64,000 bases of DNA. Source: an uncultured Chloroflexia bacterium (lineage in GTDB: Bacteria; Chloroflexota; Limnocylindria; Limnocylindrales; CSP1-4). Below, piece by piece: positions 1,416 to 60,457 of the stretch. The notes under the pieces were generated by a model that worked only from the letters and a program-made list of their open reading frames with translations, was not told the DNA's origin and ran no database searches. The position numbers and the translations under genes are program-made. The stretch covers positions 218,299 to 282,298 of the forward strand of contig CAWIYR010000003.1 of the NCBI GenBank assembly GCA_963840375.1, in the 5' to 3' direction. Numbering within the stretch: the stretch's first letter is position 1; each line of letters opens with the position of its first letter.

Positions 1416-2340
1416 CCTGATCGTCGACCCGCGGACCGTCCCCGGCGCCGATTACGCCGCCGGCGCGATCCTCGTCCTGCTCGGCGTGACCCTGATCAGC
1501 GTGCTCGTCGCGGGCGGTCTCGGCCGCGGCGGCGCGAGCCCGGGCACGCTCCTGAAGCGCTGGGTGACCTGGGCGGTCCTCGCGCCGCTGTGGTGGCTGG
1601 CCGTCTTCTGCGGGCCGCTCCCGGTCGCGGTGGTCGTGACGATCTTCGCCGTGGTCGGCCTGCTCGAGTTCGCCCGGCTGACCGACCTGCCCGAGGCACA
1701 TCGCCGGCTGCTGCTCGGAGCGGCGCTCCTGTCCGGGGTCCTCAGCCTGTTCGGGTCGACGGCGCTCCTCGCGGCCGTCCCGATCCTCCTCCTGGCCGGG
1801 ATGCTCCTGCCGGTCCTCTTCCCCGACATCCGGTCGGCGGTCCGGCACCTCGCCTTCGGAGCCCTGGCCTTCGGGTACCTGCCGCTCCTCCTGGGACACG
1901 CCGTCCTGATCGTCGAGGACCTGACCGGTGGCGCCGGGATCCTCTTCGCGACCGGGGTGGCGGTCGCCTTCTCGGACATCGGGGCGTACGTCGCGGGACG
2001 GACCTTCGGGCGACACCCGCTGGCGCCGACGATCAGCCCGAACAAGACCGTCGAGGGGCTGGCCGGCAACCTGGTCGGAGCCGTGATCGGCTACGCCATC
2101 TTCCTGCCGGTCCTGCCGACCCTGTCGCCCGTCCTGCTGGCCGCCCTGCCGATCGTCGTCGCGCTCGGCGCGGTCTGGGGCGACCTCTTCGAATCGGCCC
2201 TGAAGCGCGAGTTCGGCACGAAGGACACCGGCACCTGGCTGCCCGGCTTCGGCGGCCTCCTCGACCGGATCGATTCGCTGATCCTCGTCGTCCCCCTCAT
2301 CTACTACCTGTTCCGGGCGGCGGGAGTGCTCAAGCCATGA
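1405..2340 (+). CDS. cdsA: Phosphatidate cytidylyltransferase (CDP-diacylglycerol synthase)
   Basis: C-terminal CdsA signature ...KREFGTKDTGTWLPGFGGLLDRIDSLILVVP..., polytopic membrane protein. Confidence 0.85.
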   Translation: MPADLIVDPRTVPGADYAAGAILVLLGVTLISVLVAGGLGRGGASPGTLLKRWVTWAVLAPLWWLAVFCGPLPVAVVVTIFAVVGLLEFARLTDLPEAHRRLLLGAALLSGVLSLFGSTALLAAVPILLLAGMLLPVLFPDIRSAVRHLAFGALAFGYLPLLLGHAVLIVEDLTGGAGILFATGVAVAFSDIGAYVAGRTFGRHPLAPTISPNKTVEGLAGNLVGAVIGYAIFLPVLPTLSPVLLAALPIVVALGAVWGDLFESALKREFGTKDTGTWLPGFGGLLDRIDSLILVVPLIYYLFRAAGVLKP

Positions 2341-5046
2341 GCGAGGAACGGATCCTGGTGGGGCCGCCGGTCCCCGAGTCGCTCCGCGAGCTGACCGGCG
2401 AGACCCTGATCGAGCTCCTCGAGCGGGCGGTCGAACGCGATCCCGACGCCTCGGTCTTCGTGATGCCGCGGGGCCTCCGGCTCGAGCGCTGGACCTACCG
2501 CGACCTCGAACGGAGCAGCCGGCAGGTGGCCGTCACGCTCGCCGGGCGCGGGGTCGGGCCCGGTGCCCGGGTCGCGACCTGGGCGGCCAACGACCCCTGG
2601 CTCGTGGCCGCCTACTTCGCGGTCTGGCGGCTGGGCGGATCGGTGGTCCCGCTGGACCTGCGGATGGCGCCGGACGTCGCGATCCGGATCGGGCGGACCG
2701 TCCGGCCGGCCCTCACCCTGGCCGGCGCAGGCGGTGAGCGTCGAGGACGCGGCAGCGCTCGGCGCGCCGGTCCTGCGGGTCGACGCCGGGACGTTGCTGG
2801 GGACCGCCGGGGCGGACCAGGCTGCGCCCCGCGGGGACGACCCTGGGGCAGGCGCGAAGCCCGTGAGCGCCTCGATCACGGTGGCCCCCGACACGCTCGC
2901 CGAGGTCCTGTTCACGAGCGGGACGACGAGCGACCCGAAGGGCGTGATGCTGACCCACGGCCAGATGATCCACAACGCCCGGACGATCGCCCTCACCGCC
3001 GGGATCCGCCGCGAGCGGGCCCTCGCGCTCATCCCGCTCTCCCACATGTACGGCCAGATCGTGCCCCTCCTGTATGGGCTGCTCACCGGCTCGCAGCTGA
3101 CCTTCCTGCCCGCCCTCACCCCGTCGGCGCTGATGGCGGCGATGCGACGCGACCGGGTCACGGTCATCACCGCGGTGCCCCAGCTGCTCAAGCTCCTCAT
3201 GGACGGGATCGAGGCCGAGGCGAACCGCGAGGGGCGACTGGACCGACTCCGGCAGATCCGCCGGATCGCCCTCGTCCTGCCCATCCCCGTCCGGCGGCTC
3301 CTCTTCCGCTCGGTCCTCGAGCGCTTCGGCGGGGAGCTCCGGACGATCACCTGCGGCGGCGCGGCCCTTTCGGCCGACCTCCAGCTCGCCTGGGAGGCGC
3401 TCGGGATCGTCATCGTCCAGGGCTACGGCGCGACCGAGTGCGCCACGATCGCCGGTCACACCCGGACCGCCCGCCGGGCCGGGACCGTCGGGCCACCGCT
3501 GGCCGGGATGGAGGTCCGGATCGGGTCGGACGGCGAGCTCATCGCCCGGGGGCCCAACGTCATGCTCGGCTACTGGGACAAGCCCGAGCAGACCGCCGAG
3601 GTCATCGTCGACGGCTGGGCACATTCCGGCGACGCCGCCGAGATCGACCCCCATGGCGACCTCATCATCCACGGCCGCACCCGGGACCGGATCGCCCTGC
3701 CGAACGGTCTGAAGGTCTACCCCGAGGACGTCGAGGCGGCGATCGTCGAGGCCGGCTCCGTCCGGGCCGCCGTGGTCTTCGAGGCGAGCCCGGGTCGACT
3801 CGCCGCGGTCCTCCTGCCGGCCGATCCCGCTGCGGCGGACGCCGACCTCGACGGCGCGGTCGAGCGCGCGAACCACGCCCTCTCGCCCCACCAGCGGGTG
3901 CGACGCTGGGTCCGCTGGCCGGACCCCGAGCTGCCGCGGACGCACACCCTCAAGGTTCGCCGGGCCGAGGTGCTGGCCTGGTACTCGGCCGATGCCGGCA
4001 CCACCGGGTCCACGACGACACCGGAGACCGAGGCGACCGACGAGCGGGCGAGCCCCGGAGCGTCCGGCGGCGGCGCCGGTCCCGGACGGCGCTCCGGGTC
4101 GTCCCCGACCGCCGACGGATCGAGGGTCGTCCCGACCTCCGCCGAGGCCGTGCTTCCGGCACTCATCGACCTGGTCGCCCACGTCGTCGAGGCTGGTGGG
4201 CACCCGAGCTCCCCGATCGGGCCGACGACCACCCTCGAGGCCCTCGGCTTCGACTCCCTCGGCCGGGTCGGGCTGGCGATCCAGATCGAGGATCGCTTCG
4301 GCTCGTCGCTCGATGACTCGGACATCGCGGGCGCCGAGGATATCGCCGGGCTCGCCCATGTCATCGTGGCGCGACGCGATGCCGCCCCGCCCCCGGAGCC
4401 ACCCCGCTGGGCGCACACTCCGCCGGCGAAGACGGTCCGGCGCTGGCTCGACCGGCTTGTCACCGGCCCGGTCGTCGCGATGATCGCCCGCCCCCGGGTC
4501 GACGGGCTGGAGCACCTCGCCGGGCTCGACGGCCCGTTCCTGCTCTGCCCGAACCACGCCAGCCACCTCGACGCGCCGACGCTCCGGTCTGTCCTGCCGG
4601 CCGCGGTGCGCGACCGGACCGCGATCGCGGCCGCCGCCGACTACTTCTTCGCCGGCGGCCTCCTGGGACCCGCCGTCGCGCTGGCGACCGGGGCGTTCCC
4701 GTTCGGCCGGACCGAGCACGTCCGCTCGTCGCTGGAGCGGGTCGGGTCGTATGTCGACGCCGGCTGGAACGTCATCGTCTTCCCGGAGGGCACCCGCTCG
4801 ACGACCGGCCGGCTCGGGCCGATGAAGGCCGGGATCGGCCTGCTCGCCACACAGCTCGGCGTGCCGGTCGTGCCGATCGGGATCCGCGGCGCCGACCGGA
4901 TCCTGCCGAAGGGCGCCACCCTGCCGCGGTGGCGGGGGCGGGTCGGCGTCCGGATCGGCGAGCCGCTGACCTTCGAGCCCGACTGCCCGGTGCCCGAAGC
5001 GACCGCCCGGATCGAGGCGGCGATCCGGGGTCTCGTCGGGGCTTGA
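2337..5046 (+). CDS. Fused fatty-acyl-AMP ligase/acyl-CoA synthetase, carrier (PP-binding) domain and lysophospholipid acyltransferase (PlsC-like); interrupted by one +1 frameshift near 2722-2735
   Basis: The N-terminus (MSEERILVGPP...VVPLDLRMAP...RPALTLAG) reads in frame 0 from 2337; sense then continues in frame 1 (AQAVSVEDAAALG...LFTSGTTSDPKGVMLTH...). The product has an AMP-binding core, a GFDSL phosphopantetheine-attachment motif, and NHASHLD (HX4D) plus FPEGTRS acyltransferase motifs. Confidence 0.7.
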
Positions 5047-5047
5047 G

Positions 5048-6382
5048 ATGGCGCTCCGGGCGCTCTCGAACGCGGAGTACGTCGCGGACGTCGTCGGCGC
5101 CGCCCTGGCCTACCCCGCCTACCGGCGTCGGGAATCCTGGTCGACCGATCGGCTCCGGGCGTGGCAACTCCGTCGGGTCCGGTCGCTGGTCGACCGGGCC
5201 TACGCCTCGGTACCCGTCTACCGGGAGCGCTACGGTGCAGCGGGCTACCACCCGGGCGACATCCGGACCTGGGATGACTTCGCTCGCCTGCCGACCATCA
5301 CGAAGGTGGATCTCGTCGGCGCGTACCCGGAGCGGTCGGTGGCGGCCGACACCCCGCTGGCCCGCTGCCTGATCTCGACGAGCTCCGGGTCGACCGGTCG
5401 GATGATGGAGATCCCCCACCGAGCCGACCGGCTCTGGCCCTATGTCCTGGTCACCGAGCGCCTGTTCCGACGCCTGGCCGGGCGCTACCCACCGAGCTGG
5501 CGGCAGGCCTACATCTACACCTCGCCCTATCCGGTCCGTGGCTCGCTCGGGCTCTACCCGACGACATTCATCCCGACCGCGGACGACCCGGCGCCGATGC
5601 TCGACGCGCTGCGGCGCTGCCGGCCCCGGCTCCTGGCGGTCTATCCGACCGTCCTGCGCGACCTCCTGGCCGCCGACGCCGCGACGATGCGGGCCCTCGG
5701 GCTGCAGGCCGTCGCCGTCTCGAGCGAGCACTCGACGGCCGAGGAGCGTCGCGGTTGGACCGAGCTGCTGGGCTGCCCGGTCGGCGACCAGTACAGCAGC
5801 GAGGAGCTCGCCTACATCGCGGCCGAGTGCGTGGCGGGGACCTACCACCTCGTCGAGGACCTGACCCTCGTCGAGATCCTCGACCCCGACGCCGATCGAC
5901 CGGTCGACGGGATCGGCGAGGTCGTCGGGACGGAGCTCCACAACCGGACGATGCCGTTCATCCGCTACCGCCAGGGCGACCTCGCCCGGGTCGAGATGGG
6001 GACCTGCCCCTGCCGTCCGACGGCCGGTCCGGTCCGCCGGCTGACCGAGCTCGCCGGGCGAGCCAACGACGGCTTCATCCTGGCTGGCGGGCGGACGCTG
6101 TCGCCGGGCTTCCTCCTCGACGCCTGCTACCGGGCGATCCTGCCCCGACCGGCCGAGGTGGCGGCCTACCGGCTGGTCCAGACGGCGCCGGATCGGGCCG
6201 TCCTGGAGGTCGTCCCGGGCCCGACCTGGGACGAGGCGAGCGCCGGGCGGCTCGGCGCGGCGCTGGCCGCCGAGCTCCCGCTCGACCTTCGGGGCGACGT
6301 CCGGGTCGTCGAGCGGCTCGACCGCGCCGAGGCCGGCAAGCGGGCGACGATCGTCCGCCATCGGTCGCTCAGCGCAGCGTGA
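5048..6382 (+). CDS. Adenylate-forming enzyme of the phenylacetate-CoA ligase / coenzyme F390 synthetase (PaaK/CapK-like) family
   Basis: P-loop-like STSSGSTGRMMEIPH motif and overall PaaK-like layout; start codon lies 1 nt after the previous stop, suggesting translational coupling. Confidence 0.75.
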   Translation: MALRALSNAEYVADVVGAALAYPAYRRRESWSTDRLRAWQLRRVRSLVDRAYASVPVYRERYGAAGYHPGDIRTWDDFARLPTITKVDLVGAYPERSVAADTPLARCLISTSSGSTGRMMEIPHRADRLWPYVLVTERLFRRLAGRYPPSWRQAYIYTSPYPVRGSLGLYPTTFIPTADDPAPMLDALRRCRPRLLAVYPTVLRDLLAADAATMRALGLQAVAVSSEHSTAEERRGWTELLGCPVGDQYSSEELAYIAAECVAGTYHLVEDLTLVEILDPDADRPVDGIGEVVGTELHNRTMPFIRYRQGDLARVEMGTCPCRPTAGPVRRLTELAGRANDGFILAGGRTLSPGFLLDACYRAILPRPAEVAAYRLVQTAPDRAVLEVVPGPTWDEASAGRLGAALAAELPLDLRGDVRVVERLDRAEAGKRATIVRHRSLSAA

Positions 6383-6827
6383 AGTAGGCGCCGTAGATGA
6401 CGACCATGAGCCCCACGTACCCTGCCATGACCGCCCGCGGGTGGCGGCCGATCGGACGCCGGAAGACGGTCCCCACGACCCAGGCCACCGCGGCCGAGAG
6501 CCCGACCCGTTCGAGCCGGTTCAGGGCGACCATCAGCAGGACGCCCCCGAGCGGCTGGCCGAGGAGCGCCGCCTCGTGGATGTAGAGCTTGACCGGGAGA
6601 CCCTGGAGGGGGCCGTTCAGGAACGCCCCGAGCCCCTGACCGCCGAGCTCGCCCGACGCGGTCGCCAGATCGACCGGGCGGATCCCCGGGAGGGCCGCGA
6701 TGGCCTCGCCGAGGACGGGCCAAACCGGGGTGAGCCACCACAGGACGGTCGCGCCGACGAGCGCACCGGCGACCGTCGCCAGGAGGACCTTGAGCGTCCG
6801 CCCGGGAGCGAACAGGGCCACGAACAT
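6369..6827 (-). CDS. DedA/YqaA-like (SNARE-associated) membrane protein; N-terminus unresolved (homology continues upstream to about 6935 without an in-frame start codon)
   Basis: C-terminal part of minus ORF 6369..7730: ...LLFLVPDLWVMFVALFAPGRTLKV...GIRPVDLATASGELGG... is YqaA-like. The only in-frame canonical start is the ATG at 6827; the first TM and ~10 hydrophobic residues before the VP motif lie upstream of it. Confidence 0.45.
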   Translation of the reverse strand: MFVALFAPGRTLKVLLATVAGALVGATVLWWLTPVWPVLGEAIAALPGIRPVDLATASGELGGQGLGAFLNGPLQGLPVKLYIHEAALLGQPLGGVLLMVALNRLERVGLSAAVAWVVGTVFRRPIGRHPRAVMAGYVGLMVVIYGAYFTLR

Positions 6828-6920
6828 GACCCACAGGTCGGGGACCAGGAAGAGGAGCGACGCCTCGGCGGCGCCCCAGCCGGCCGCGACCCAGAGCGCA
6901 CCGGTGGAGGCGGCGATCCG

Positions 6921-8205
6921 GTGGATGGTCGAAGGGGAGCGCGGCTCGGCGTCGCGGCCCGTGGTCGCGCCGGGTGGCGCGTTCGCGTCGGAAGCAGGCG
7001 CCGCCGCGGACTGCGTCTGCGCGCCCGCCTCACCGCCCTGCGTTCGGGGATCGTCTACAGCCGGGTCTGGGAGGACGACCGGGTCGACCGGCTGGCCCTC
7101 GCGATCGAGCCCGGCGACCGGGTCCTCGTCGTCGCCTCGGCCGGCGACGTCGCCCTTCATGCCGCGCTCGACGGCGCCCGAGAGGTCATCGCGGTCGACC
7201 GGAACCCCGCCCAACTCCACCTCCTGGAGCTCAAGCTCGCCGCACTTCGGACGCTCGACGCAGATGCGTTCTGGACACTCTTCGGCGAAGGCCGCTCGCC
7301 GGCCGGCGCCGCCTGGTACGACCGGCTGCGACCGGCGCTGCCGCCTCCGAGCCGGCGGTACTGGGACCGGCACGCCGGGCTGTTCGACCTGGGACTGATG
7401 CACCAGTCCCGGGTGGAGCTGGGCCTCCTCCTCCTCGGTCCGCTCGTTCGTGGGATCGCGGGCCGGCGGGACTTCGCCCGACTGATCGAGGCGCCCGATG
7501 TCCGGGCCCAGGGACAACTCTACGCCCGCCGCTCGGCGCGACGCCTGTGGAATCCGGTCACCCGCCGGGCGATCCGGTGGAGCGGGCTGCTGGCCCTGCT
7601 CACGATGAACCGCGAGCAGTGGCGCCTGGTCGGTCGACGACCGCTTCCTCGACGGCTTCGAGGAGCGGGTCGCCTCCCTCGTTGACCGCGAGCTCGTCCG
7701 CGAGAACCCGTTCTGGTGTCGCGTCCTCACCGGGCAGCCGTGCGAGCAGGCTCACGAAGTCGCCTATCTGGCGCCCGGGGCGTTCGAACGTCTCGGCGGC
7801 TGCGCCCCGGCGATCCGGCCCCGGCTCGGCCCGCTCGTGATGATCCTCCGGGGCGAACCCGACGCGAGCCTCGACGCGATCGATCTCCTCGACGTCCCCG
7901 ATTGGCTGCAGCCGCCGGCCCGGCGTGAGCTCTGGGGCGAGGTCGGCCGGGTCCTCCGGCCGGGCGGGCGGTGCCTGACCAGGTCGATCTCGCGACGGCC
8001 GGACCTCCCCGGCCCGGGTCGCGGCCTGGTGCTGGACGGGCCGCTGTCGAGGCAGCTCACCGCGATGGAGCGGACGGCCGTCTACGGCTCGGTGACCGTC
8101 CTCCGGAGGGCCGCGGTCGAGTCAGGCCCGGCCGGCCGGCCGGTCGCCGACGCGCCGGTCAGCGTCGGGCCGATCAGCGCCGGGCCGGTCGCCACAGCGC
8201 GGTGA
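6921..8205 (+). CDS. DUF3419 / BtaA-like protein (family of S-adenosylmethionine:diacylglycerol 3-amino-3-carboxypropyl transferase); frameshift near 7609-7627, start uncertain
   Basis: IVYSRVWEDD, VLVVASAGDVALHAAL, VIAVDRNPAQLHLLELKLAALRTLD and FWTLFG read in frame 0; ENPFWCRVLTG...DAIDLLDVPDWL... continues in frame 1 to the stop at 8205. The nearest in-frame canonical start is the GTG at 6921. Confidence 0.55.
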
Positions 8206-9356: not shown

Positions 9357-12300
9357 ATGGCCCGAGCCGCCGTCCAGGGAGTCCCGGTGATGGAACAGCC
9401 CAAGTCCACCGGTCGGAAGACGCCGCACCGCCACCACGGCCCGTACGGGGTGAGCTTCAACGGCCAGAACCCGGACGGCAGCCCCGCCAGGGGCCTGACC
9501 TTCGAGCGGCGCTGGACCCGGCCGGGCGTCCATCCCTACGACGAGATCCGCTGGGAGACCCGGACCGCGACCATCGGCAACGAGTCGGGCAAGCTCGTCT
9601 TCGAGCAGAAGGACGTCGAGGTCCCGGAGTTCTGGAGCCAGCTGGCCACCAACGTCGTCGTCAGCAAGTACTTCCGCGGCCACCTCGGGCACGCCGGAGC
9701 GCGAGACGAGCGTCCGCCAGCTCATCGACCGGGTCGTCAACACGATCGCGGCCTGGGCCGAGACCCAGCGCTACTTCGCGACCGACGCGGACCTGCGAGA
9801 CGTTCAAGGCGGAGCTCACCCACCTCCTGGTCCACCAGAAGATGAGCTTCAACTCGCCGGTCTGGTTCAACGTGGGGATCGAGCAGAAGCCGCAGTGCTC
9901 GGCCTGCTTCATCAACTCGGTCCAGGACTCGATGTCCTCGCATCATGGACCTGGCCAAGACCGAGGCGATGCTCTTCAAGTTCGGCTCGGGCGCCGGCTC
10001 CAACCTCTCCCCCATCCGCTCCAGCCGGGAGAAGATGTCGGGCGGCGGCACGGCCAGCGGCCCGGTCAGCTTCATGAAGGGCTACGACGCCTTCGCCGGC
10101 GTGGTGAAGTCGGGCGGCAAGACCCGGCGCGCCGCCAAGATGGTCATCCTCGACGTCGACCACCCGGACATCCTCGACTTCATCGACTCGAAGAAGCACG
10201 AGGAGGAGAAGGCCTGGGCGCTCATCGAGATGGGCTACGACCCCAGCTTCACCGGCGAGGCCTACGGCTCGGTCTTCTTCCAGAACGCGAACCACAGCGT
10301 CCGGGTGACCGACGAGTTCATGCAGTCGGTGGTCGACGACCGCGACTGGACCACCCACGCCGTCGTCGACAAGAAGCCGATGGGCACCTACAAGGCGCCG
10401 CGACATCTTCCGCCGGATGGCCGACGCCGCCCACCTCTGCGGCGACCCCGGGATCCAGTACGACACGCACGATCAACGACTGGCACACCTCGCGCGAACA
10501 CGGACCGGATCTACGCCACGAACCCGTGCTCCGAGTACATGTTCCTCAACGACACGGCCTGCAACCTGGCCAGCCTCAACCTCATGAAGTTCGTCCGCGA
10601 GGACGGTGAGTTCGACGTCGAGGCCTACCGCTACGCCGCCGGCTGACGATCACCGCCCAGGAGATCCTCGTCGACAACGCGTGCTACCCGACGCCGCGGA
10701 TCGAGGAGAACTCCCATCGCTTCCGGCCGCTCGGGCTGGGCTACGCCAACCTCGGCGCGCTGCTCATGAGCCGCGGCCTGGCCTACGACAGCGACGAGGG
10801 CCGGGACTACGCCGCCGCCCTGACCGCGATCATGCACGGCGAGGCGTATCGCCAGAGCGCGATCATCGCCCGCGACCACGGCGGCCCGTTCGCCGAGTAC
10901 AAGGTCAACGAGCAGCCGTTCCTGCGGGTCATCGGCAAGCACCGCGACGCGGCCTACCGGATCCCGGCCGACCAGGCGTCCCGGCCGACCTGCTGGCGGC
11001 CGCCCGGGTCGTCTAGGACGAGGCCCTCGAGCTGGGGCCGGCAGCACGGCTACCGCAACGCCCAGGTCACCGTCCTGGCCCCGACCGGCACGATCGCCTT
11101 CATGATGGACTGCGACACCACCGGCATCGAGCCGGACATCGCCCTCATCAAGTACAAGAAGCTCGTCGGCGAGGGCTTCCTCAAGATCGTCAACCAGACG
11201 GTCCCGGCAGCGCTCAAGAAGCTCGGCTACGCGCCCGACCAGGTCGAGGAGATCCTCGCCTACGTCAACGAGCGCGAGACGATCGAGGGCGCCCCGCACG
11301 TCAAGCCCGAGCACCTGTCGGTCTTCGACTGCGCGTTCAAGCCGGTCAACGGCGAGCGGTCCATCCACTACATGGGCCACGTCCGGATGATGGCCGCCGT
11401 CCAGCCGTTCCTCTCGGGCGCGATCAGCAAGACCGTCAACATGCCCGAGGCCGCCACCACCGAGGAGATCGAGCAGGTCTACCTCGAGGGCTGGAAGCTG
11501 GGTCTCAAGGCGATCGCGATCTACCGCGACGGCTCCAAGCGCAGCCAGCCGCTGAGCACGGGCAAGAAGAAGGACGACGAGGCCGACGCCGGGGTCGTCG
11601 CCGAGCTCCGGGCCCAGCTCGCCGCGGCCCAGGCCGAGGCGAAGAAGCCCCACCGGCATCGGCTGCCGACCGAGCGGACCGCGATCACCCACAAGTTCGA
11701 CATCGCCGGCCACGAGGGCTACATCACGGTCGGGCTCTACCCGGACGGCCAGCCCGGCGAGATCTTCCTGAAGATGGCCAAGGAGGGCTCGACCGTGTCG
11801 GGCCTGATGGACACCTTCGCGACCTCGGTCAGCCTCGCCCTCCAGTACGGCGTGCCGCTGCGCGACCTGGTCAACAAGTTCGCCCACGTCCGGTTCGAGC
11901 CGAGCGGCTTCACCGGCAACCAGGAGATCCCGATCGCGAAGTCGATCGTCGACTACATCTTCCGCTGGATGGGCAGCCGCTTCCTGCCGGCCGACGAGAA
12001 GGCCCAGATCGGGCTGATCGACCGTGCCGCGGTGACGGACGCCCCGGCCGCCGGCGGGTTCGGTGGCGGCTTCGGTGGGTTCGCCTCACCGGCCGCTGAC
12101 GCCCGACGGCCGAGGAGGGCCCGTCGGCCATCGACGAGGCGGTCGAGCCGCCGTCCGACCGAACCGCGGGCGACCGCGGTCGCCGCCGAGCCGGCGCCGG
12201 TCGCCAAGGCGGCCCTGCCGGTCGTCGAGTCGGCTGCCACCAACGGTCACGCGAACGGCAACGGGAACGGCAAGGCCAACGGGAACGGCAACGGTCACGC

Positions 12301-12454
12301 CCTGAGCGCGATCACCGCCTCGCTCGGGACGACGAAGGTCTCCTTCACCGTCCAGGAGGACGCCCCCAGCTGCGCCGAGTGCGGCTCGATCATGGTCCGC
12401 AACGGCAGCTGCTACAAGTGCCTCAACTGCGGCAGCACGAGCGGCTGCAGCTGA
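9357..12454 (+). pseudogene. nrdJ: Adenosylcobalamin-dependent ribonucleoside-diphosphate reductase (class II RNR) NrdJ; as written it is broken by at least 8 frameshifts, probably sequencing or assembly indels rather than decay
   Basis: Strong SD (GGAGGAGAGAG) before the ATG at 9357. Conserved NrdJ sense (FEQKDVEVPEFWSQLATNVVVSKYFRG; ETFKAELTHLLVHQKMSFNSPVWFNVG; GSGAGSNLSPIRSSREKMSGGGTASGPVSFMKGYD; NPCSEYMFLNDTACNLASLNL; LAPTGTIAFMMDCDTTGIEPD; AIAIYRDGSKRSQPL; C-terminal CxxC...CxxC tail) jumps between all three forward frames at roughly 9695, 9800, 9940, 10400-10500 (two), 10640 and 10975-11035 (two). Confidence 0.85.
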
Positions 12455-16770: not shown

Positions 16771-17880
16771 GTGACCGCCGACGTCCTGAGCCTGCGGGCC
16801 CTGAACCGGGCGACCCTGGAGCGCCAGTCCCTGCTCCGGCGGTCGGCGATGACACCGCTCGAGGCGGTGCGGCACCTCGTCGGGTTGCAGGCCCAACTGC
16901 CGCTGAACCCGTACCTCGGCCTGTGGTCCCGGATCGAGGGCTTCGATCCGGCCGAGCTCGGCCGGCTGATGGAGGATCGGCAGGTCGTCCGCGCGCCGGT
17001 CATGCGATCGACGATCCACCTCGTCACGGCGGACGATTGCCTGCCCCTGCGCGCCCTTGCCCAGCCGGCCCTCGATCGCCAGCTCGAGCGCCATCGCGAG
17101 TACGCGCCCAGGCTCCGGGACGTGGACGCCGACGCGGTCATCGCGTTCGCCACGCCGCTGCTCGAGCGACCCCACACGCTCGCCCAGCTCCGCGCGGCCC
17201 TCAAGGGGCAGTTCCCCGACCGCGACCCCGCAGCCCTCAGCCTCCTCTGTCGCAACCGGCTGACCCTCGTCCAGGTCCCACCACGCGGCGTGTGGGGACG
17301 GACGGCGCCGATCACCGTGGCTACGGCGGAGGCGTGGACCGGCCGGGCGCGGCCCGGGCGTCCGTCGATCGACGGGGTCGTCCTCCGCTACCTCGCCGCC
17401 TACGGTCCGTCCTCGGTCGCCGACGTCGCCGCATGGTTCGGGCTCACCGGGCTGCGCGAGGTGCTCGAGCGGCTCCGGCCTCGACTGCGCACGTTCCGCG
17501 ACCCGAAGGGCCGCGAGCTCTTCGACCTGCCGGACGCGTCACGACCCGACCCGGACAGCCCCGCCCCGGTCCGCTTCCTGCCCGAGTACGACAACGTCCT
17601 GCTCTCCCACGCTGACCGGTCACGGTTCGGGTTCGACGCCGTGGCCGCGGCGTGGATCGCGCCGCCGGTCCAGGGGACGACACTCCACGACGGCCGGGTC
17701 ATCGGGACCTAGTCGATCGAGCGCGACCGCGGCGCCGGGCGGTCGACCCTGACGATCCGGGCGATGGCCCCGCTGACGACGGCCGCGACGGCGGAGGTCG
17801 AAACGGAGGGCCTCGCCCTCCTCGGCCTCCTCGAGCCGTCGGCCGTGGCCCACGCCGTCCGGTTCGCCGCGCTGGCCTGA
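16771..17880 (+). CDS. Winged-helix DNA-binding protein of the YcaQ/DUF1006-like family (crosslink-repair glycosylase-like), interrupted by an in-frame TAG at 17710-17712
   Basis: GTG at 16771. Family sense continues for 55 codons beyond the TAG (...HDGRVIGT*SIERDRGAGRSTLTIRAMAPL...AVRFAALA) to a TGA at 17878-17880. The TAG sits where a Trp (TGG) would be expected. Confidence 0.6.
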
Positions 17881-24452: not shown

Positions 24453-24584
24453 GGGACGCACCTCCTCGGCGGAGGATACCCCGCGGCCGACGCCGGGCAT
24501 GTCCGCCCCACGGCGGCCGTGCGGCCGGGCGGCACTGAGGACGAGCGATGCGGCAAGTCCGAGGTGGCCCAAGACGAACGGGCC

Positions 24585-41223: not shown

Positions 41224-42640
41224 GGGAGCCGCTGAGGGCGATGGCGTCGGTGAGGGTGACGCCGTCGGCGGCAGGGCGATCTTCAGCAGGCCGGCGGTGA
41301 GCGGCCGGAGGTCCACGCCGTTCTGGTTCGCGAGCACGGCGATCGCGACCCCGTCGTTCGGGAGGTAGCGCAGCTCGCCGCGCGTGCCGAGGAGCCGGCC
41401 GCTGTGACCCAGGGCCCGGTGCCCGCCGATCTTCGTGACCTGGACCCCGAGACCGTAGGGCACGAACGGGTGGAAGCGGGCGGTCTTCCGGGCGTCGGCC
41501 ACCGCGGCGGCGAGGGTGGCCGGCTCGAGCACCCGCCCGCCGTAGAGCGCCCGGGCCCACGCCGCGAGGTCGGCCGTCGTCGCGGCGAGGTCGCCGGCCG
41601 AGCCGGCCGCGGTGACGACCGAGGTGAACGGCGCGATGTTCCCGGCCTTGTCGGCGAGCGGGATCGGTCGGGCCGCGGCCGACGGACTGTTGAAGTAGTA
41701 GCCGACCGAGAGCGGGCCCCGTGGCCGCTCGTCGACCTGCACGAACGTATGGCGCAGGCCGAGCGGGTCGAGCAGCTCCTGGCGGACCTGGCTCGCGAAC
41801 GATCCGGGTCCGACCTGTTCGGCGATGAGCCCGAGGAGCAGGTAGTTCGTGTTCGAGTAGTGCCAGCCCTTGCCCGGCGCGAACAGCTGGCGGCCCGACG
41901 TAGCCGAGCGCCTGGGCCGCTGTCCAGGTCGCCCCGCGGTCGGCCAGGAGCGCCTTGTCGACACCCTTGCCGAAGAAGAAGTCGGCCAGCCCGCTGGTGT
42001 GGTCCAGGAGCATCCGGACCGTGACCGCCTTGGGGATCCGGCGACCCGGCTTGCCGATCCGGACGTCCGGCAGGAGGTTCACCACCGGCGTGTCGAGCTG
42101 GACCCGGCCCTCTTCGACGAGCTTCAGGACGAGGGCCGCGGTGAACGTCTTGCTCATGCTCGCGATCGAGAAGGCCGTGTCCGCGGTCACCGCCCGTCGG
42201 GCTGCGACGTCGGCGAACCCGGTGCTGCCGGTCCAGTGGCGCCCGTCCGGCCAGGTGATCGTGACGCTCGCGCCCGGAAGGCGGTAGCGCTTCGCGTACC
42301 GGTCCAGCGAACGCTGGAGCCGGGCCGCCAGGGCCGGGTCGACGGCGGTCGGCGACCCGCCGGGTGACGACGACGCCCCGGGCGTCGCACTCGGCAGTGG
42401 GCTCGCGGTCGGGACGACGACCGCCGACGGCGCGGCCGAGCGGCTGGCGGCGGGCGAGCGGCCCGGTGAGAGCGACGGTCCTGACGTCCCCGCCGTGCTC
42501 GCTCCGAGGCCGTCGCTCGTCGGGGAGGCCGCCGCGCTCGGAGCGACCGGGCCGCCGGTCGAGGACCCGATGAGCGCGGCGATGCCGACGGCCGCCAGGA
42601 CGAGGGCGAGGATCGGCGCGACGATCGACCGGCGAAGCAC
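41221..42640 (-). CDS. Serine hydrolase of the beta-lactamase / penicillin-binding (class C-like) family, secreted; frameshift near 41900-41960
   Basis: GTG at 42640 preceded closely by TATAGT (possibly leaderless). Signal/TM segment, then an Ala/Ser/Pro linker, then SMSKTF (SxxK) in one frame; YSNTNY (YxN) and the remainder in the second frame. Confidence 0.7.
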
Positions 42641-43429: not shown

Positions 43430-44089
43430 GTGGACACGAAGAAGCTGCTGGCCGAGCTCATCGGGACGTTCACATTCTTCATGATCGCCTTCATGGCCGT
43501 CGTGGCGCAGAAGACCTTCTCGTCGACCGGCGACCTGCCGGTGATCGCGTTCGGCTTCGGCTTCGGCCTCCTGGCGGCGATCCAGATCTTCGGGGCGGTC
43601 TCGGGCGGCCACTTCAACCCGGCGGTGACCACGGCTGCGGTCCTCGACCGGCGGATGGACCCGGCGACCGGGGTGGGTTATGTCGCCTCCCAGCTCATCG
43701 GAGGGATCGCCGCCGCGGTCGTGGTCGCGATCGTGTTCGGGACCGAGACGGTAAAGGGCATCGAGACGCTGCCTCAGAATGGTGTCAGCGACATCCAGGC
43801 CCTGCTGCTCGAGACGATCTTCACTGCGTTCTTCGTGCTGGTCATCCTGGTCTCCACGAAGAAGGCTCCGACCCTGGCCGCCATCGTCATCCCGCTCACC
43901 CTGGTCGCGATGCATCTCGCCCTGGTGCCGTTCACCGGTACCTCGGTGAACCCCGCCCGGTCGATCGCACCGGCCGTGATCGGCGGCGACCTGACGGCGC
44001 TGTGGGTCTACATCGTGGGTCCGACCCTCGGCGCGATCATCGGCTGGGCGGTCTACAAGTACGCCACCGGCGAGCCGTCCGCTGCCTGA
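43430..44089 (+). CDS. Aquaporin / MIP-family channel
   Basis: Two NPA boxes (GGHFNPAVT, SVNPARS), six TM segments; GTG start with GGAGGG 8 nt upstream. Confidence 0.9.
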   Translation: MDTKKLLAELIGTFTFFMIAFMAVVAQKTFSSTGDLPVIAFGFGFGLLAAIQIFGAVSGGHFNPAVTTAAVLDRRMDPATGVGYVASQLIGGIAAAVVVAIVFGTETVKGIETLPQNGVSDIQALLLETIFTAFFVLVILVSTKKAPTLAAIVIPLTLVAMHLALVPFTGTSVNPARSIAPAVIGGDLTALWVYIVGPTLGAIIGWAVYKYATGEPSAA

Positions 44090-44576
44090 CGACGAGCCGA
44101 CACCGGGCGGGTCGGGCCCCGGCGCTGCGGCCCTCCTCCGCTCGGTCGGCCTGCTGGCCGATGGTCCGGCGGTCTGGGGCGCGGCCGTCCGCTCGAACCG
44201 GCCTGGCGTCTACATCGTCGAGCTGCCGGAGCCGACGGCCACGGCGCCGATCGACTTCAACGCCGTCGGCCGCTGGATCGAGCGGGTCCCGACGCTGACC
44301 CTGGACGGGAGCCAGCCTACGGGCCGCGAGCTCGCGGCCCGTCTCCGGTCCTTCTGGCTGGCGGACCAGCCGATCCTGTACATCGGCACCTCGGGCGTCT
44401 CGATCGGAGCCCGGATCTCCGCCTCCCTGCGGACGCCGCTGGGCGACCGCCGACCGTACTCGGGCGGGCACTGGCTCCGGACGCTCAGCGGCCTCGACCG
44501 CCTGCGGATCTGGTGGGCCGAGACCGACGCCGTCGAGGAGTACGAGGACGCCCTCCTCGACGCATTCGCCGGGGCC

Positions 44577-45455
44577 GTGCCGGAGCCGGCGGCAGCGGCA
44601 CTCCACGACCGGGCGGTGATCCTTCCGTACGCCAACCTCCAGGCCGCCGACGGCACGCGCAAGGCTCACGGCATCGCCGGGTCGCTGCTCACCGACGAGT
44701 CCGCTGGGCCGGTGACCGACGCCGAGCGCCGGGCGGCGGCCGGCCGGGCCCAGACCGCCCGGGCAGCCGGGCAGCCGGCCGGGCGAGCCGCCACCGGCGG
44801 GCGGTCCGATCCGACCCGGAACACGGGGGTCCTCCGATCACGCTCGGTCCTCACGGCGAGCGGCCGACCGGCAGCACCGCGGAGTCCGCGGGCGGCGGGC
44901 GCCGGAACGTCCGCGTCGAGCCGGGAGACAGGCGGCGCCGGCCGGCAGACGGGTGTCCCGACCGCGGCGCCGACGATCGGCTCGAAGGCGCCAAAGGCGC
45001 CGACCCGACTCTCCGAGGACGGGCTCGCCGCGCTCCGGGCCGAGCTGGACGAGCTGACGAACGTGACCCGCCCGGCGATCGTCGCCCGGATCGCCGCCGC
45101 GCGCGAGCTCGGCGACCTCAAGGAGAACTCGGACTACCACGAGGCTCGGCGCGAGCAGTCGTTCGCCGAGGGCCGGGTCCGGGCCATCGAGGAGCTCCTC
45201 CGGAACGTCGAGATCATCGAGGAGGGGGCCGACGGAGGCCGGGCGCGGCTGGGCTCCACGGTCGCCGTCCTGGGCCCGGACGAGGAGGAGGAGACCTACA
45301 CGCTGGTCGGGTCGAGCGAGGCGAACGCCGCGGCCGGTCGGATCTCCGCCGAGTCCCCGATCGGGGCCGCACTCATGAACGCTGCGGCCGGCGACGAGGT
45401 CGAGGTCATCATCCCGGCCGGACGCCTCCGCTATCGGGTGGTCGAGGTCCGCTGA
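44577..45455 (+). CDS. GreA-domain transcription elongation factor-like protein; the reading frame is open and coding-like upstream to about 44100 (extra N-terminal domain) with no canonical in-frame start codon
   Basis: Complete GreA N-terminal coiled coil and C-terminal domain (ELDELTNVTRPAIVARIAAARELGDLKENSDYHEARREQSF...GSTVAVLGPDEEEETYTLVGSSEANAAAGRISAESPIGAALMNAAAGDEVEV). The first in-frame ATG/GTG/TTG after the stop at 43992 is the GTG at 44577, yet 44100-44576 has strong GC3 bias and a domain-like sequence. Confidence 0.6.
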   Translation: MPEPAAAALHDRAVILPYANLQAADGTRKAHGIAGSLLTDESAGPVTDAERRAAAGRAQTARAAGQPAGRAATGGRSDPTRNTGVLRSRSVLTASGRPAAPRSPRAAGAGTSASSRETGGAGRQTGVPTAAPTIGSKAPKAPTRLSEDGLAALRAELDELTNVTRPAIVARIAAARELGDLKENSDYHEARREQSFAEGRVRAIEELLRNVEIIEEGADGGRARLGSTVAVLGPDEEEETYTLVGSSEANAAAGRISAESPIGAALMNAAAGDEVEVIIPAGRLRYRVVEVR

Positions 45456-54402: not shown

Positions 54403-54549
54403 GCCCCAAGGCTACAACGCGCCGTCGGACCGGCGGTCGGGCGGGCCGCGCCATGACCCGTTCGGTCGGCCCGGGGCTGGTCCTGTCGGGTACTGGAGCG
54501 GGGCCCGGAAGCAGGGCATCGTGCTAGCCTCACCCGCTGGAGACGTTCC

Positions 54550-55889
54550 TTGTCCGTGCCCGACCGGCGACCGCTCCGACTCCGCCCGCACGCCCGAGCG
54601 ACGACCGCGACCGTCCTGGCCGTCGTCGGGGCGATGCTCGTGGGCGGGTCGTTCGCGGCGGCCGCCGCCCCGACGCCGACGCCCAGGGTCGATCCCGCGC
54701 CGCCGCCGCCGACGACGATCACGTTCTACGGACGCGGCTACGGCCACGGGGTCGGCATGTCGCAGTACGGGGCCCGGGGTCGGGCGCTGGCCGGCCAGGA
54801 TGCGGCGACGATCCTGGCCCACTACTACCGGGGCACGACGCCCGGCGCCACCAGCCCCGACCCGCGCGATCCGGGTCCTCGTGCTCCACGCGTTCAGGCC
54901 GACGACCGCGGTCCCGCTCCGGCTCTACGGGCGAGGCGGGACGTGGACGATCGACGGCGTCGCCGGGACGTTCCCGCCCGGCGCGAGGCTCCTCGTCACG
55001 CGAGACGTCGACCGGCTTCCGCATCTCCGTGCGGAGCGTGGCCGGCGTCACGCTCCTGAGTCGGTCCACGGCCGCCGACCTCCGGGTCCGACCCACGAAC
55101 CCTGAGAGCGGGCGGATCCAGGTCTGGTCCAAGCCGGGCTCCTACGACACGTATCGCGGGGTCATCCGGATCCGGGCCGCGTCCGGCGGCATCGACGCCA
55201 TCGACGAGGTCGGGCTCGACGCCTACCTCCTGGGCGTGGTCCCGGCCGAGATGCCGTCCAGCTGGCCGGTCGAGGCGCTCAAGGCCCAGGCGATCGCCTC
55301 GCGCAGTTACGCCGCCCGCCGGCTTCACCCGAAGACCGGGACCTGGGACCTGTACGACGACACGCGGAGCCAGGTCTACCGTGGCTCGCTCGCCGAGAGG
55401 CCGGGGACGACCGCGGCGGTCGGCGCGACCGCCGGGCAGGTCCTCCGGAGCGGCACGGCGATCGCCAACACCCTCTACCACTCGACGGGCGGGGGCGCCA
55501 CCGAGGACAACGAGAACGTCTTCGTCTCCGCGACCGGCGCCATCGTGGCCGGACCGGTCTCGTATCTGCGAGGCAGCGCGGACCGGGCTCCCGACGGGAC
55601 CGCGTACGACGCCGCCGCACCGCGAGCGACCTGGCAGACCGCCGCCTACACGATGGACGAGCTGTCGACGATCTTCGCCGGGGACGCTCGAACGAACGTC
55701 GGGAGCCTGACCGCGCTCGACCTGACCCGGGTGGGGGTCTCCGGGCGGCTGATCAGCGTCACGCTGACCGGCAGCCTCGGGGCGAAGACCGTCGCCGGCG
55801 ACGTCTTCCGGTCCGTGTTCAACAGCCGATCGCCGGCCGCCGATCCGGCCATGTGGAGCACGCTCGTCTCGACCGAGCCGATCCCCTAG
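54550..55889 (+). CDS. SpoIID/LytB-domain protein (peptidoglycan amidase enhancer-like), secreted; two frameshifts near 54850 and 55030
   Basis: Signal peptide, then GYGHGVGMSQYGARGRA in frame 1; IRVLVLHAF...LRLYGRGGTWTIDG in frame 2; ...LDAYLLGVVPAEMPSSWPVEALKAQAIASRSYA... in frame 0. Confidence 0.7.
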
Positions 55890-55947
55890 CGACCAGCCGG
55901 GGACCCGGGCCGCGCCATCGCGCCGCGGACCACTATCCTGCCGGTCC

Positions 55948-56559: not shown

Positions 56560-56572
56560 GGCGCGACCGCGT

Positions 56573-57076: not shown

Positions 57077-57132
57077 CGCGGGTCAGCGCAGGCCGGGCCG
57101 CGCGATCACGCCACGGCCCCGGGCGGCGCCGC

Positions 57133-57623: not shown

Positions 57624-60457
57624 CTAGCGCAGCGATATCGAGGAGGCCGTGACGTTCCGACCGCGGGACCGGTCGCTGCCGCCGACCGTCAGGCTCATCG
57701 CGCCGGCCCGGCCACCGCGATGGATCGTCCAGGTCGCCCGGTAGGTGGAGCCGGACACGTGCTTGAGGGTGAGCGCGTAGGGCGCCAGGCCCGGCTGGCG
57801 GACCGTGAGCCGCGGGCTCCCGGAGAGGGGCTCGGTCGAGACGACCGTCACCGTGAGCCGGGCACCACGCCGGGCCCTGGCCACCGAAGGCCGGATCTCG
57901 AAGGCCGCCGCTCGTACGGCGGCGACGTGCGTCTCGCTCGCGTCTCCGACGGCCGCCCGGACCACGAGCCGGTAGACGCCCTGCGGGGCGAAGCCCCGGC
58001 GTCGGTCCGACCGTCCCAGGCCACCGCGACCGGTCCCGTCGGATACGGGCCGGCGATCGTCCGGACCGCGAGGCCCCTGGCATCGAGCACGCGGAGCTCG
58101 ACCTCGGCCGGGGCGCGAAGGGTGAACGCGGCACCGGTCCGGGGCGCCAGAGCGTCGCCGTCCTGCGGGAAGAAGCGCGCCGGCGTCGCGGCCAGGCCGA
58201 CGAACGACCCGAAGACGGAGACGTCCACGGAGGCCGTCGGACCGGCGTTCCGGGCCCGGTCGAGCGGGGTGAGGGTCAGCGTGTAGTCGCCGTCGGGGAC
58301 CACGTGGCCGGCGTCGTCCCGACCGTCCCAGACGACCGACCCGGAGCCGGCCCTGGGGGCGCCGGTCGTCAGGGTGCGGAGCGTCGATCCGCCGGTCTTC
58401 GGGGTCACCGCCAGCCGCACTGCGCCGGGCTCGCTGATCGCATGGCTCACGGCGACGGTGTCGGCGATGCCGTCGCCGTTCGGCGAGAAGATCGTGCGCG
58501 AGACGGTCACCGAGCCGTCCGGGCCGAGCGACGGCGCGGTCCGGTCGATCGTGAACCGGGTGGTCTTCACGGCCTCGGCCCGCCCGGTGACGTCGATCGA
58601 GCGGTAGGCGACGGTGTGGACCCCCTCGGTGGTGACGATGATCGGACCGGCGTACGGCGTGAGCGGGGCGCCGTCGAGCGAGATGAAGGTCGACGCGACG
58701 CCGCTCTGGGCGTCGGTCGCGCTCAGACCGACGGTGACGTCGTCGCGGAAGTAGCCCGCCTCGCCGACCGGGCCGGCGAGGTCCGCGCTGGTCACCGGGG
58801 CGGTCACGTCGACCCGGACGGCCACGCTCCGTGCGGTCTCCACGTTGCCGGCCCGGTCGGTGGACCAGTAGCGCAGCCGGTGGTCGCCGGAGCGGGCGAT
58901 GACGACCGGACCCGTGTAGCGCGTCGCCGCCCCGCCGTCGAGGCTCCAGGCCGTGCCCCGGAGCCCGCTGAGGGCATCGCGGCCGGCGAGGGTGACGGTC
59001 GCCGCGGTCGCGTACCAGCCGCTGGGATCGAGCGTCCCGGTCACGCTCGACGTGGTCTGCGGCGCGGTCGCGTCGAGGACGAACCGACCCGACAGGGTGA
59101 ACGGCGCCGGGTTGTTGCCGGCCGGCTCGCGACCCGCGTACGCCCACGTGTAGGTGCCGTCCGGGATCAGCGTCCCGCCCGTCCCCCGGAGGTTCCAGTC
59201 GAAGACGGACCAGGCGTCGGTCCCCGCCAGGGTCCGGACGACGGCCCCGCCGGCATCCCGGACCTCGATCGTCCCGTCGAGCGGCTCGGAGGCGCGGACG
59301 ATCACGTGGAAGGTGTCGTGGACGTAGTCGCCGTTCGGCCCGATGAGGACGCCCGGCGGGTCGTAGTCGTAGAGCCGGGCCGGCGTCCCGTCGACCGGGA
59401 CGAGCGCGTCGGCGCGGACGTAGCCGACCAGGTCGGGAGCGTCGAACGGGTGGACTCGGACGACCCGACCGCCGTCCGGGAGGGCCGCCGCGTCGGCGAC
59501 GATCCGCAGCCGGCGGCCGGCCTCGAGCGGGGCGATGACGCTGCCGAGCTCGGGATCCGCGAACAGGTCGCCGGCGGTCGCGACGTCCCCGGCGCCGCCG
59601 ACGACGATCGTCGGGGGCACGACGTCGGTCGGAAGGTAGGCCGTCCGGGTGACCATCGCCGCGGTGAGGCCCGGGTCGAAGACCGCCGAGTGGTACCACG
59701 GCCCGCGACTGACGCTCGTCGGGTCCATCAGGGCCCGGGCCCCGGTGGTCCGGAACGAGTCCCAGGCGATGTCGTGGCCGTGATAGGTCGGCGCGGCATG
59801 GAACAGGGCGTTCATCCCGAGCGACGAGGTGAAGAGCCGGCGGAGGTACGTCGTCTGGGGGTGATAGGCGTCGGCGATGACAGCCCGCGCGCCCGCCGCG
59901 AAGAACCCGGCTCCGTAGTTCTCCACCCGCGCCTTCTTGTCGGACAGTGACCCCGTCGCCAGCCCCGGCTCGGTGTTGCCCGACGCGTAGCAGAGGTGGA
60001 AGAGGAGGACCACCGCGTTGGGTGCCAGCCGGATCTCGGAGCCGACCTGCGCCTCGCCGTAGTAGACGTGGGTGGTCCCGTTCGCGCCGGTCGGCGGGTC
60101 GAGACCGAAGCCGTTCTGGGTGAACGGCCAGAGCGCATCCCGGTAGCGGGACGGCCAGCCGTTGCCGTGCCCCAGGTAGATGAGGATCGAGGCCCCCTGC
60201 GCCGCGGCCCGGACGGCCGACCAGGTCGCCCGGGGCGTCTTGATGACGACGACGTTCCTGGTGTACTTCCGGGCGACCGCGGCGAGCGCATCCGCGTCGG
60301 CCTTGTAGTGGGCGTTGTACGAGCCGACCGGGCCGACGACGATCACGACCTTCGGGTTCACCGCCGCGGATGCGGCGGCAGCCGGGTGGACCGTGGCCAG
60401 CGGAAGGAGCAGGCCGAGGGCGACGAGGACGGCGACGATCGGTCGGATCATGGGCAC
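57624..60457 (-). CDS. Large secreted protein with an N-terminal clan-CD-like cysteine peptidase domain (gingipain C25 / clostripain C11-like His-Gly ... Cys dyad), followed by multiple Ig-like (Big/FlgD-Ig) domains; frameshift near 57990-58020
   Basis: Signal peptide, then IYLGHGNGW and LLFHLCYASG (His/Cys dyad pattern); repeats ...FSPNGDGIADT...VWDGRDDAGHVVPDGDYTLTL...; the C-terminal 120 aa read in the frame of ORF 57624..59699. Confidence 0.65.

Follow-up and report, generated by a model that had tools for sequence, protein, structure and literature searches.

Does a stretch of DNA in which eight otherwise well-conserved genes are interrupted by frameshifts record the decay of a genome, or the errors of an assembly? 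This question is raised by the 64-kb segment of a soil-bacterium contig analyzed here (the window), which has a GC content of 73% and a Chloroflexota, Limnocylindria-like sequence. A preliminary description had stated that conserved genes in it switch frame, with family-typical sequence encoded to either side of each break, and had favored consensus errors over pseudogenization. We located the breaks by codon-usage Viterbi segmentation of the window, as a GC3 frame plot alone gave too much noise at 73% GC, and cross-checked them by frameshift-aware protein-to-DNA alignment against intact orthologues, by Pfam profile continuity and by three-way DNA alignments. When the six-frame open reading frames (ORFs) of a relative, L004, were compared by blastx, many matches were off-frame, since wrong frames remain open at high GC; this comparison was replaced by piecewise tblastn with frameshift-aware dynamic programming. 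The four methods agreed with one another and the Pfam profiles continue across the breaks, confirming the frame switches. The window contains 20 single-nucleotide frameshifts in the eight genes, which bears out the earlier figure of about 20 events in 64 kb; 17 are insertions and three are deletions, every one of 1 nt. In addition, two in-frame TAG codons were found.

Four sequences served as the main comparators: L001, a sister assembly 98.4% identical to the window, with which the comparison reaches 23.2 kb; L003, a related 668-kb contig of another species; L004, used for the beta-lactamase family, SpoIID, Ig-like and GreA-fusion genes; and L085, a same-species JGI contig of independent origin (sample 3300001213) that matches the window at 98.7% identity across 4.26 kb. 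Exact-protein look-ups with four window proteins (26-35 kb) gave no retrievable record extending L001 past 23.2 kb. No same-species independent copy of central nrdJ emerged when metagenome DNA was scanned with an anchor in nrdJ, the sole match being L084, an intein-containing nrdJ of another species, 88-91% identical. Searching proteins with the C-terminal part of the repaired NrdJ failed to pick up a 122-aa fragment from JGI, which belongs to the same strain group.

Outside nrdJ, the frameshifts occur as one event per gene, except for SpoIID. The gene for an AMP-ligase/ACP/acyltransferase fusion (2337..5046, + strand) has a +1 insertion at about 2732, an extra C in GCAGG[C]GGTG that is present in neither L001 nor L003; frameshift-aware alignment with the intact 912-aa L003 orthologue placed one single-base insertion at 2733, with 776 identical residues. 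The three-way alignment also suggested window "deletions" at 4067 and 4194, which we attribute to noise in the alignment or to insertions in L001, as the protein-guided alignment contained only the one ligase frameshift. The DUF3419 gene (6987..8145, +) carries a +1 insertion at 7631 (CTGGT[C]GGTC), a wobble site at which L001 has G, L003 has C and the window has CG. In the amine-oxidase/CrtI-like oxidoreductase gene (20169..21891, -), a +1 insertion lies at about 21805 (codon 28), as compared with the 575-aa L003 orthologue, and a product of equal length, 575 aa, is encoded on a JGI contig from the same strain group. The +1 insertion in the class I/II aminotransferase gene (23271..24470, -), at about 23890 (23885-23895), was located by Pfam continuity, with positions 5-166 and positions 178-359 of PF00155 lying in two successive frames. 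The beta-lactamase family gene (41260..42640, -) has a +1 insertion at about 41884 (GTCGGG[C]CGCCAG); positions 2-133 and 132-313 of PF00144 lie in different frames, and both pieces match one continuous frame in L004. A further candidate frameshift at the N-terminus of this gene (42632) was dropped, an in-frame GTG start being present in the window at that point. The SpoIID/LytB-domain gene (54574..55889, +) contains +1 insertions at 54860 and 55003, the two sites expected from the earlier reading, and its three pieces match one L004 frame. Finally, the gene for a large secreted Ig-like (FlgD_ig) protein (57627..60451, -) has a -1 deletion at about 57993, seen as a single-base deletion in the frameshift-aware alignment, and both pieces match one L004 frame; the former name "peptidase" finds no support in Pfam, which gives only FlgD_ig/Big domains.

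One of the TAG codons (17710..17712, +) interrupts an AlkZ/YcaQ-like gene (16771-17880) where both L001 and L003 have TGG (Trp314). The preliminary description was right about this stop in place of Trp, and wrong in counting it as the only one, as it missed the TAG at 11014..11016 (+) in nrdJ, where L001 and L003 have TAC (Tyr552). It had also listed two genes as lacking start codons, and there is indeed no ATG, GTG or TTG upstream of their conserved parts. The "DedA-like" membrane-protein ORF (6372..6930, -), a name for which a Pfam search gave no match, has a conserved N-terminal extension without a canonical start; since intact L003 shares the same extension, this anomaly is not an error and stands outside the artefact. 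In the gene for GreA with an N-terminal domain of unknown function (44082..45455, +), the first canonical start is at 44577, and the CTG of the window at 44154 is ATG in L004.

The gene most heavily affected is nrdJ (9357..12454, +), which encodes a class II, B12-dependent ribonucleotide reductase. Three-frame reading, protein alignment with the L003 product (P0001) and three-way DNA alignment revealed 12 frameshifts, where at least eight had been described: +1 insertions at 9687, 9796, 9941, 10397, 10467, 10487, 11043, 12096, 12106 and 12159, and -1 deletions at 10641 and 10978. When the frames were followed, 980 residues were identical to the 1039-aa P0001, which has the domains PF08471 (Ribonuc_red_2_N), PF02867 (Ribonuc_red_lgC) and PF12637 (TSCPD), and the repaired protein is about 94-95% identical to it. 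The NPCSE active-site motif is kept, ATNPCSEYMF being read at 10520-10550. A riboswitch was looked for in the nrdJ leader and none was found. The proteins on record for the window itself include a 562-aa nrdJ fragment, and many ENA contigs longer than 100 kb have NrdJ only as C-terminal fragments of 90-240 aa.

Wherever L003 or L004 has an orthologue of an affected gene, its reading frame runs unbroken through the sites of the window lesions. L003 encodes an intact 912-aa ligase fusion, 384-aa DUF3419 protein, 1039-aa NrdJ, 369-aa AlkZ and 575-aa amine oxidase, and in L004 the beta-lactamase, SpoIID and Ig-like genes are continuous in frame at the break sites. The check proposed earlier, a position-by-position comparison with the nearest genomes, gave a similar result within the species. 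L001 covers 15 of the frameshifts, and 12 of these are absent from it in the three-way alignment; besides the deletion at 10978, the window alone, as compared with L001 and L003, carries 11 single-base insertions. Only three indels separate the window from L085; in each case the window is the longer sequence, and two of the three are the SpoIID frameshifts. The SpoIID encoded by L085 (P0254, 445 aa) is intact and shares 99% identity with the repaired protein of the window. The aminotransferase, beta-lactamase and Ig-like sites lie outside the same-species comparison. The relatives have lesions of their own: L001 has about 40 private ones, of which about 35 are insertions of one or two nucleotides, 33 of them of just one, and five are deletions; most lie at 2.5-6.4 kb, a part that is intact in the window. 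The Ig-like gene of L004 contains a frameshift at a point where the window is intact.

At three nrdJ sites L001 is also hit, with the same kind of change at 10487 (+1) and 10641 (-1) and with an insertion a few bases apart at 11043. These are the only 1-nt sites among the nrdJ indels that the window and L001 have in common relative to L003, the others being of 3, 33, 6 and 3 nt. In the shifted frame, the 51 codons from 10487 to 10641 show perfect conservation, and the base lost at 10641 is not the same one in the window as in L001. The three lesions could be shared real changes; judging by these alignments, a recurrent, context-dependent error would fit better.

We examined the substitutions on the window branch, which comprise 61 synonymous and 44 non-synonymous changes over all genes, a ratio close to that between species (956 and 567). 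These data indicate that the affected genes are under purifying selection and do not show the relaxed selection of pseudogenes. Coding frames cover about 91% of the window in the Viterbi segmentation, in contrast to the low coding density of a decaying genome, and no transposase-like ORFs or insertion sequences were noticed while reading the translations of the window ORFs.

Taken together, these results suggest that the frameshifts and both TAG codons are very probably consensus errors of a long-read-only metagenome contig and not mutations of the organism, and that the genes, as far as the sequences of the relatives tell, are intact in the real population. The preference for consensus errors expressed earlier is thus supported by the intact orthologues, the private nature of the lesions, the frameshifts of L001 itself and the purifying selection. 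The nearest relatives belong to the MAGs of Microflora Danica (MFD), their contigs being named contig_N. The MFD catalogue consists of Nanopore-only metaFlye assemblies given one round of Medaka polishing, and its authors refer to errors associated with Nanopore sequencing in MAGs of low coverage (PMC12313526). Nanopore bins under about 40x coverage are known to keep frameshifting indels (Sereika et al. 2022, PMC9262707). Judging by these relatives and by its length of 721,697 bp (NCBI and ENA), the window contig was most likely also produced from Nanopore reads with metaFlye and Medaka.

The main alternative to an assembly origin is genuine pseudogenization, in which nrdJ and the seven other genes are being lost, either in a decaying genome or in a relaxed lineage with another ribonucleotide reductase. 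The lesions do stand in the deposited sequence, 12 frameshifts and a stop give nrdJ the look of a long-dead gene, two of the nrdJ sites are hit in L001 as well, and the presence of the AlkZ-like gene varies among strains. However, a gene with 12 real frameshifts would be expected to evolve neutrally, and the 24 synonymous versus 17 non-synonymous substitutions of nrdJ on the window branch, together with the 94% identity of the repaired protein and the retained NPCSE motif, speak against its decay. Apart from the three nrdJ sites, the lesions that could be compared are absent from L001 and L085, the sister assembly has some 40 different ones, and the window combines a coding fraction of about 91% with no insertion sequence noticed among the ORFs read. 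The size and direction of the changes, all of 1 nt with 17 of 20 being insertions, are the reverse of what genuine bacterial pseudogenes show, a bias towards deletions reportedly described by Mira, Ochman and Moran in 2001. We therefore regard pseudogenization as very unlikely. A milder version, in which a minority of the lesions are real, is given equally little probability, and its extreme form would have nrdJ being inactivated; the candidates would be the opposite pair at 10487/10641 and the G>A nonsense change of the AlkZ-like gene, which is missing from one related JGI contig and may therefore be dispensable, so that this change could be a real allele. Still less credible, to the point of being negligible, is recoding, whereby programmed frameshifting or transcript editing would restore the frames and TAG would be read as an amino acid. 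Nothing favors it beyond the frame breaks in conserved genes themselves, whereas the orthologues are single-frame at every site and no common slippery motif was found in the junction contexts. Reassignment of TAG was rejected, since the two codons stand for different residues, Tyr and Trp, and TAG is the normal terminator of 14 of the about 60 window genes.

If the lesions are consensus errors, how they arose is a separate matter. The preliminary description had pointed to short G/C runs, a remark that proved weak because only about 3-4 of the 17 insertions (2 of the 10 scored) extend a base run. At five of ten window insertions, the relatives carry the two adjacent bases as alternatives, as compared with a null mean of 0.68, none of 2000 simulations reaching five. 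Similarly, 9 of the 33 L001 insertions fall at two-allele sites (null mean 3.6, P=0.005). Examples of two-allele sites in the window are 7631, 9687, 9796, 10467 and 55003. In five events the inserted base is the L003 allele. Frameshifting indels co-localize with SNP-dense 1-kb bins (rho 0.65, p 0.002). These enrichments point to consensus errors caused by a mixed population, with the read-level mechanism deduced from the assemblies. Many of the errors would be 1-nt insertions at sites, mostly G/C wobble positions, where reads of the population or of a cross-mapping relative carry two alleles. Both alleles may then be written side by side in the consensus, as in GG[G/C] becoming GGGC, so that one base is added and the frame is shifted. 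The nrdJ hot spot could be explained in the same way, because nrdJ, the most conserved gene of the region at the DNA level (90.8% identical to the other species, as compared with 84-87% for its neighbors), would recruit reads of co-occurring relatives and is situated in a SNP-dense part of the contig.

A simpler possibility is that the errors are random ones of low-coverage Nanopore data without any population heterogeneity, the nrdJ cluster reflecting only a local drop in coverage. In its favor, low-coverage bins retain indels anyway (PMC9262707), about half to two thirds of the insertions lack direct two-allele evidence, and the L001 insertions are not enriched beside wobble positions (23 of 33, where 2/3 is expected). 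We nevertheless consider it the less probable account, at perhaps one chance in a few, as it explains neither the significant two-allele enrichment nor the co-localization with SNP-dense segments, nor the five inserted bases that match L003, nor the position of the cluster in the segment most similar to the other species.

The finding is real in the sequence and biologically ordinary; with the genes intact in the organism, it has no biological import. It is relevant to users of this contig or of similar Nanopore-only MAGs, as automatic annotation of the contig will report nrdJ and the seven other genes as fragments or pseudogenes, and this could be mistaken for genome decay or for the loss of B12-dependent ribonucleotide reduction. 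The IDEEL test, attributed to Watson and Warr in 2019, is said to measure gene calls fragmented in this way by long-read indels. A technical point that may be useful is that many of the errors appear to be one-base insertions at polymorphic wobble sites and not homopolymer miscalls; strain-aware polishing or frameshift-aware annotation would remove them.

Among known systems, programmed +1/-1 frameshifting, as in prfB, dnaX and IS3 transposases, resembles the window in that the protein continues in another frame, but its sites are conserved and have slippery or stimulatory signals, whereas the orthologues of the window genes are unshifted and the junction contexts are heterogeneous. Decay of the Mycobacterium leprae type likewise leaves frameshifts and stops in recognizable genes, at a density comparable to the roughly one per 3 kb seen here; in contrast to the window, it is accompanied by relaxed selection, deletional bias, lesions of varied sizes and their inheritance by close relatives. 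The closest likeness is to Nanopore assembly indel errors (Sereika et al. 2022, PMC9262707), known in uncorrected long-read MAGs, in which assembly-private single-base indels break conserved ORFs, and the window lesions compared with the independent JGI assembly are likewise absent from it. The window departs from the classical form of these errors, which are homopolymer-length changes and often deletions, in that 17 of its 20 events are insertions, mostly outside runs, many of them at bi-allelic wobble sites and clustered in a conserved, SNP-dense gene.

The window has a G+C content of 73% along its whole length; incorrect frames remain open at this composition, so that plain ORF lists were uninformative. 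The gene map was made by codon-usage Viterbi segmentation together with reading of the translations, giving about 60 genes, with about 91% of the window coding; no tRNA genes and no Rfam matches were found in the window. Frame breaks were located by frameshift-aware protein-to-DNA alignment against intact orthologues, by continuity of Pfam profiles, and by piecewise tblastn to L004, a contig from a more distant MFD (Microflora Danica) MAG (MFD02134.bin.2.85 contig_6050, 702 kb) that is syntenic with window positions 36.5-61 kb at ~75% identity. Combined, these tests gave 20 single-base frameshifts in eight genes. Twelve lie in nrdJ (9357-12454; sites from 9687 to 12159), encoding the class II, B12-dependent ribonucleotide reductase, and the others in the ligase-ACP-acyltransferase fusion gene, which starts at 2337 (2732), DUF3419 (7631), the amine-oxidase/CrtI-like gene (21805), the aminotransferase (about 23890), the beta-lactamase family gene (about 41884), SpoIID (54860 and 55003) and the large Ig-like protein called a peptidase previously (about 57993). 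In three-frame reading, the NrdJ sequence hops between frames across 9330-12460. Likewise, profile positions 5-166 and then 178-359 of PF00155, and 2-133 and then 132-313 of PF00144, were matched in different frames. A 562-aa nrdJ fragment is among the window's own proteins on record (NCBI and ENA). The remaining same-strand frame switches of the segmentation were rejected as breaks, since they are normal boundaries between genes, marked by stop and start codons.

There are also two in-frame TAG codons, at 17710-17712 in the AlkZ/YcaQ-like gene (TGG in relatives) and at 11014-11016 in nrdJ (TAC in relatives). The inventory in the preliminary description was thus correct and slightly conservative; the stop reported in the YcaQ-like gene is present, but it is not the only one, the TAG in nrdJ having been overlooked. 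Recoding of the breaks or TAG codons is excluded, since TAG is an ordinary terminator, ending 14 of the ~60 window genes, and the residue replaced is not the same at the two internal TAGs.

Three further contigs were compared with the window. The same-species sister assembly L001 (ENA ERZ25039502 contig_52138), found via a response regulator that matches the window's exactly, is 98.4% identical to window 2287-23208. The related-species contig L003 (ERZ25039554 contig_1175, 668 kb) was reached from the best NrdJ match, P0001 (1039 aa, 95% identical to the window NrdJ); it is 84-91% identical to the window, and all the genes at issue are uninterrupted in it. NrdJ homologues are named as 'Candidatus Limnocylindrales' or Chloroflexota MAGs. 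L085, an independent 4.26-kb same-species contig from JGI sample 3300001213, was found via its intact SpoIID (P0254, 99% identical to the repaired window SpoIID) and is 98.7% identical to window 52863-57128.

A three-way alignment of the window, L001 and L003 showed 11 one-base insertions and a deletion at 10978 that are private to the window and absent from L001. L001 has its own ~35 insertions of 1-2 nt (33 of 1 nt) and 5 deletions, mostly within 2.5-6.4 kb, a part that reads cleanly in the window. Three indels separate L085 from the window, each an extra window base, and two of these are the SpoIID frameshifts. The Ig-like gene of L004 carries a frameshift of its own (291-635, near the N-terminus) at a point where the window is continuous. 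All 20 window lesions are of 1 nt, with 17 insertions and 3 deletions, whereas a bias towards deletions is typical of real bacterial pseudogenes. The nrdJ indels common to the window and L001 as compared with L003 are of 3, 33, 6 and 3 nt, leaving aside three 1-nt sites at which both carry a lesion, indicating that real evolutionary indels respect the reading frame. Neutral evolution is expected of a gene with 12 frameshifts and a stop, yet substitutions on the window branch, polarised with L003, were 24 synonymous versus 17 non-synonymous in nrdJ (61 versus 44 in all genes; 956 versus 567 between species). Private lesions, lesion spectrum and selection, including the comparison with the closest genomes that had been proposed as a check, therefore support consensus error rather than decay, as originally preferred.

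Two nrdJ lesions, +1 at 10487 and -1 at 10641, are present in L001 as well. These sites are read as recurrent, context-dependent errors, because conservation persists in the shifted frame over the 51 codons between them, including the NPCSE active-site motif, because 10641 lacks a different base in each assembly, and because 10487 reads CGCG in both where CGC or CGG is expected. In the intergenic region after nrdJ, position 12539 has GGG in the window and L001 (Nanopore-type assemblies) versus GGGG in the JGI contig L002, which may be a homopolymer contraction common to both or a genuine difference. Among the lesions, the likeliest to be real is the single nonsense change in the AlkZ-like gene (16771-17880), with error the simpler reading. 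This gene is missing from one related JGI contig (sample 3300075153) with an identical response regulator; its VanZ-DUF1801 gap is only ~200 nt, so the gene is variably present among close strains.

Missing start codons had also been noted. The 'DedA-like' membrane ORF (minus strand; no Pfam match) indeed lacks ATG, GTG or TTG in its conserved N-terminal extension (6827-6930), but so does the intact L003, and the anomaly is a lineage feature, not an error; ATC at 6926 may serve as a non-canonical start. In the GreA-fusion ORF, the first canonical start is at 44577, as reported, and CTG at 44154 corresponds to ATG in L004, which could reflect a genuine difference or an erroneous substitution. 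This ORF (44120-45455) joins GreA (PF03449 and PF01272) to an N-terminal domain of ~300 aa that has no Pfam match, a fusion kept in L004 at ~65% identity.

The nrdJ leader (8429-9356, ~920 nt) is conserved with L003 and had no match in Rfam, even with E-values up to 1 allowed. Within it lie a perfect 24-nt palindrome, ATATTCCGATCGCGATCGGAATAT (8759-8782), two AT-rich, NrdR-box-like 16-mers (8964 and 8997), and ~2.5 tandem copies of a 20-nt unit, GGCCCCCGGCGCGRGATCAT (8666-8717), with one copy fewer in L001. The window and L003 share a 289-bp segment (8146-8434) whose minus strand encodes a C-terminal GNAT-like fragment; L001 lacks it. Many Limnocylindria NrdJ homologues (1315-1492 aa) contain an intein (PF14528/PF14890), located at 2923-4111 in L084, a JGI contig of another species, in the active-site region equivalent to window 10559-10562; the window nrdJ has no intein.

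Contig names of the relatives are in the Flye style, and the GTDB entries among them are titled MFD MAGs. The MFD catalogue is Nanopore-only, and its authors describe Nanopore-associated errors in lower-coverage MAGs (PMC12313526); the same group reported that R10.4 bins still required polishing with short reads at coverage below ~40x (PMC9262707). By way of these relatives, we infer Nanopore as the platform of the window's own contig. Although breaks in short G/C runs had been remarked upon, only ~3-4 of the 17 insertions lengthen a run, and the lesions are therefore not classical homopolymer error. At several sites, the relatives' alternative wobble alleles are both present in the window side by side: GGGC at 9687 (GGC and GGG in relatives), CTGC at 9796 (CTG and CTC), ACGC at 10467 (ACC and ACG) and GTCG at 7631 (GTG and GTC); 55003 reads CGAG (CGG in L085). 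In a placement simulation, such two-allele insertions exceeded the null both in the window (5 of 10; null mean 0.68; at least 5 in 0 of 2000 simulations) and in L001 (9 of 33; null mean 3.6; P = 0.005).

Frameshifting indels track SNP-dense 1-kb bins (rho 0.65, p 0.002). Between the window and L001, private differences number 251 substitutions and 47 frameshifting indels in 2.3-12.5 kb, as compared with 22 and 7 in 16.3-23.2 kb. The nrdJ segment is the closest to the other species, L003 (90.8% versus 84-87% in neighbouring segments). Many long ENA contigs of the clade carry only short NrdJ fragments, suggesting that nrdJ is recurrently fragmented in its long-read assemblies; numerous ENA/NCBI contigs between 100 kb and 1.6 Mb long have only 90-240-aa C-terminal pieces (e.g. 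P0134, P0170, P0174, P0187, P0196 and P0221). The best reading is that mixed alleles in the pile-up, arising from strain microdiversity and from the mapping of co-occurring relatives' reads to a conserved gene, lead the consensus step to write two bases in place of one. The feature is a known type of assembly artefact whose error signature is uncommon.
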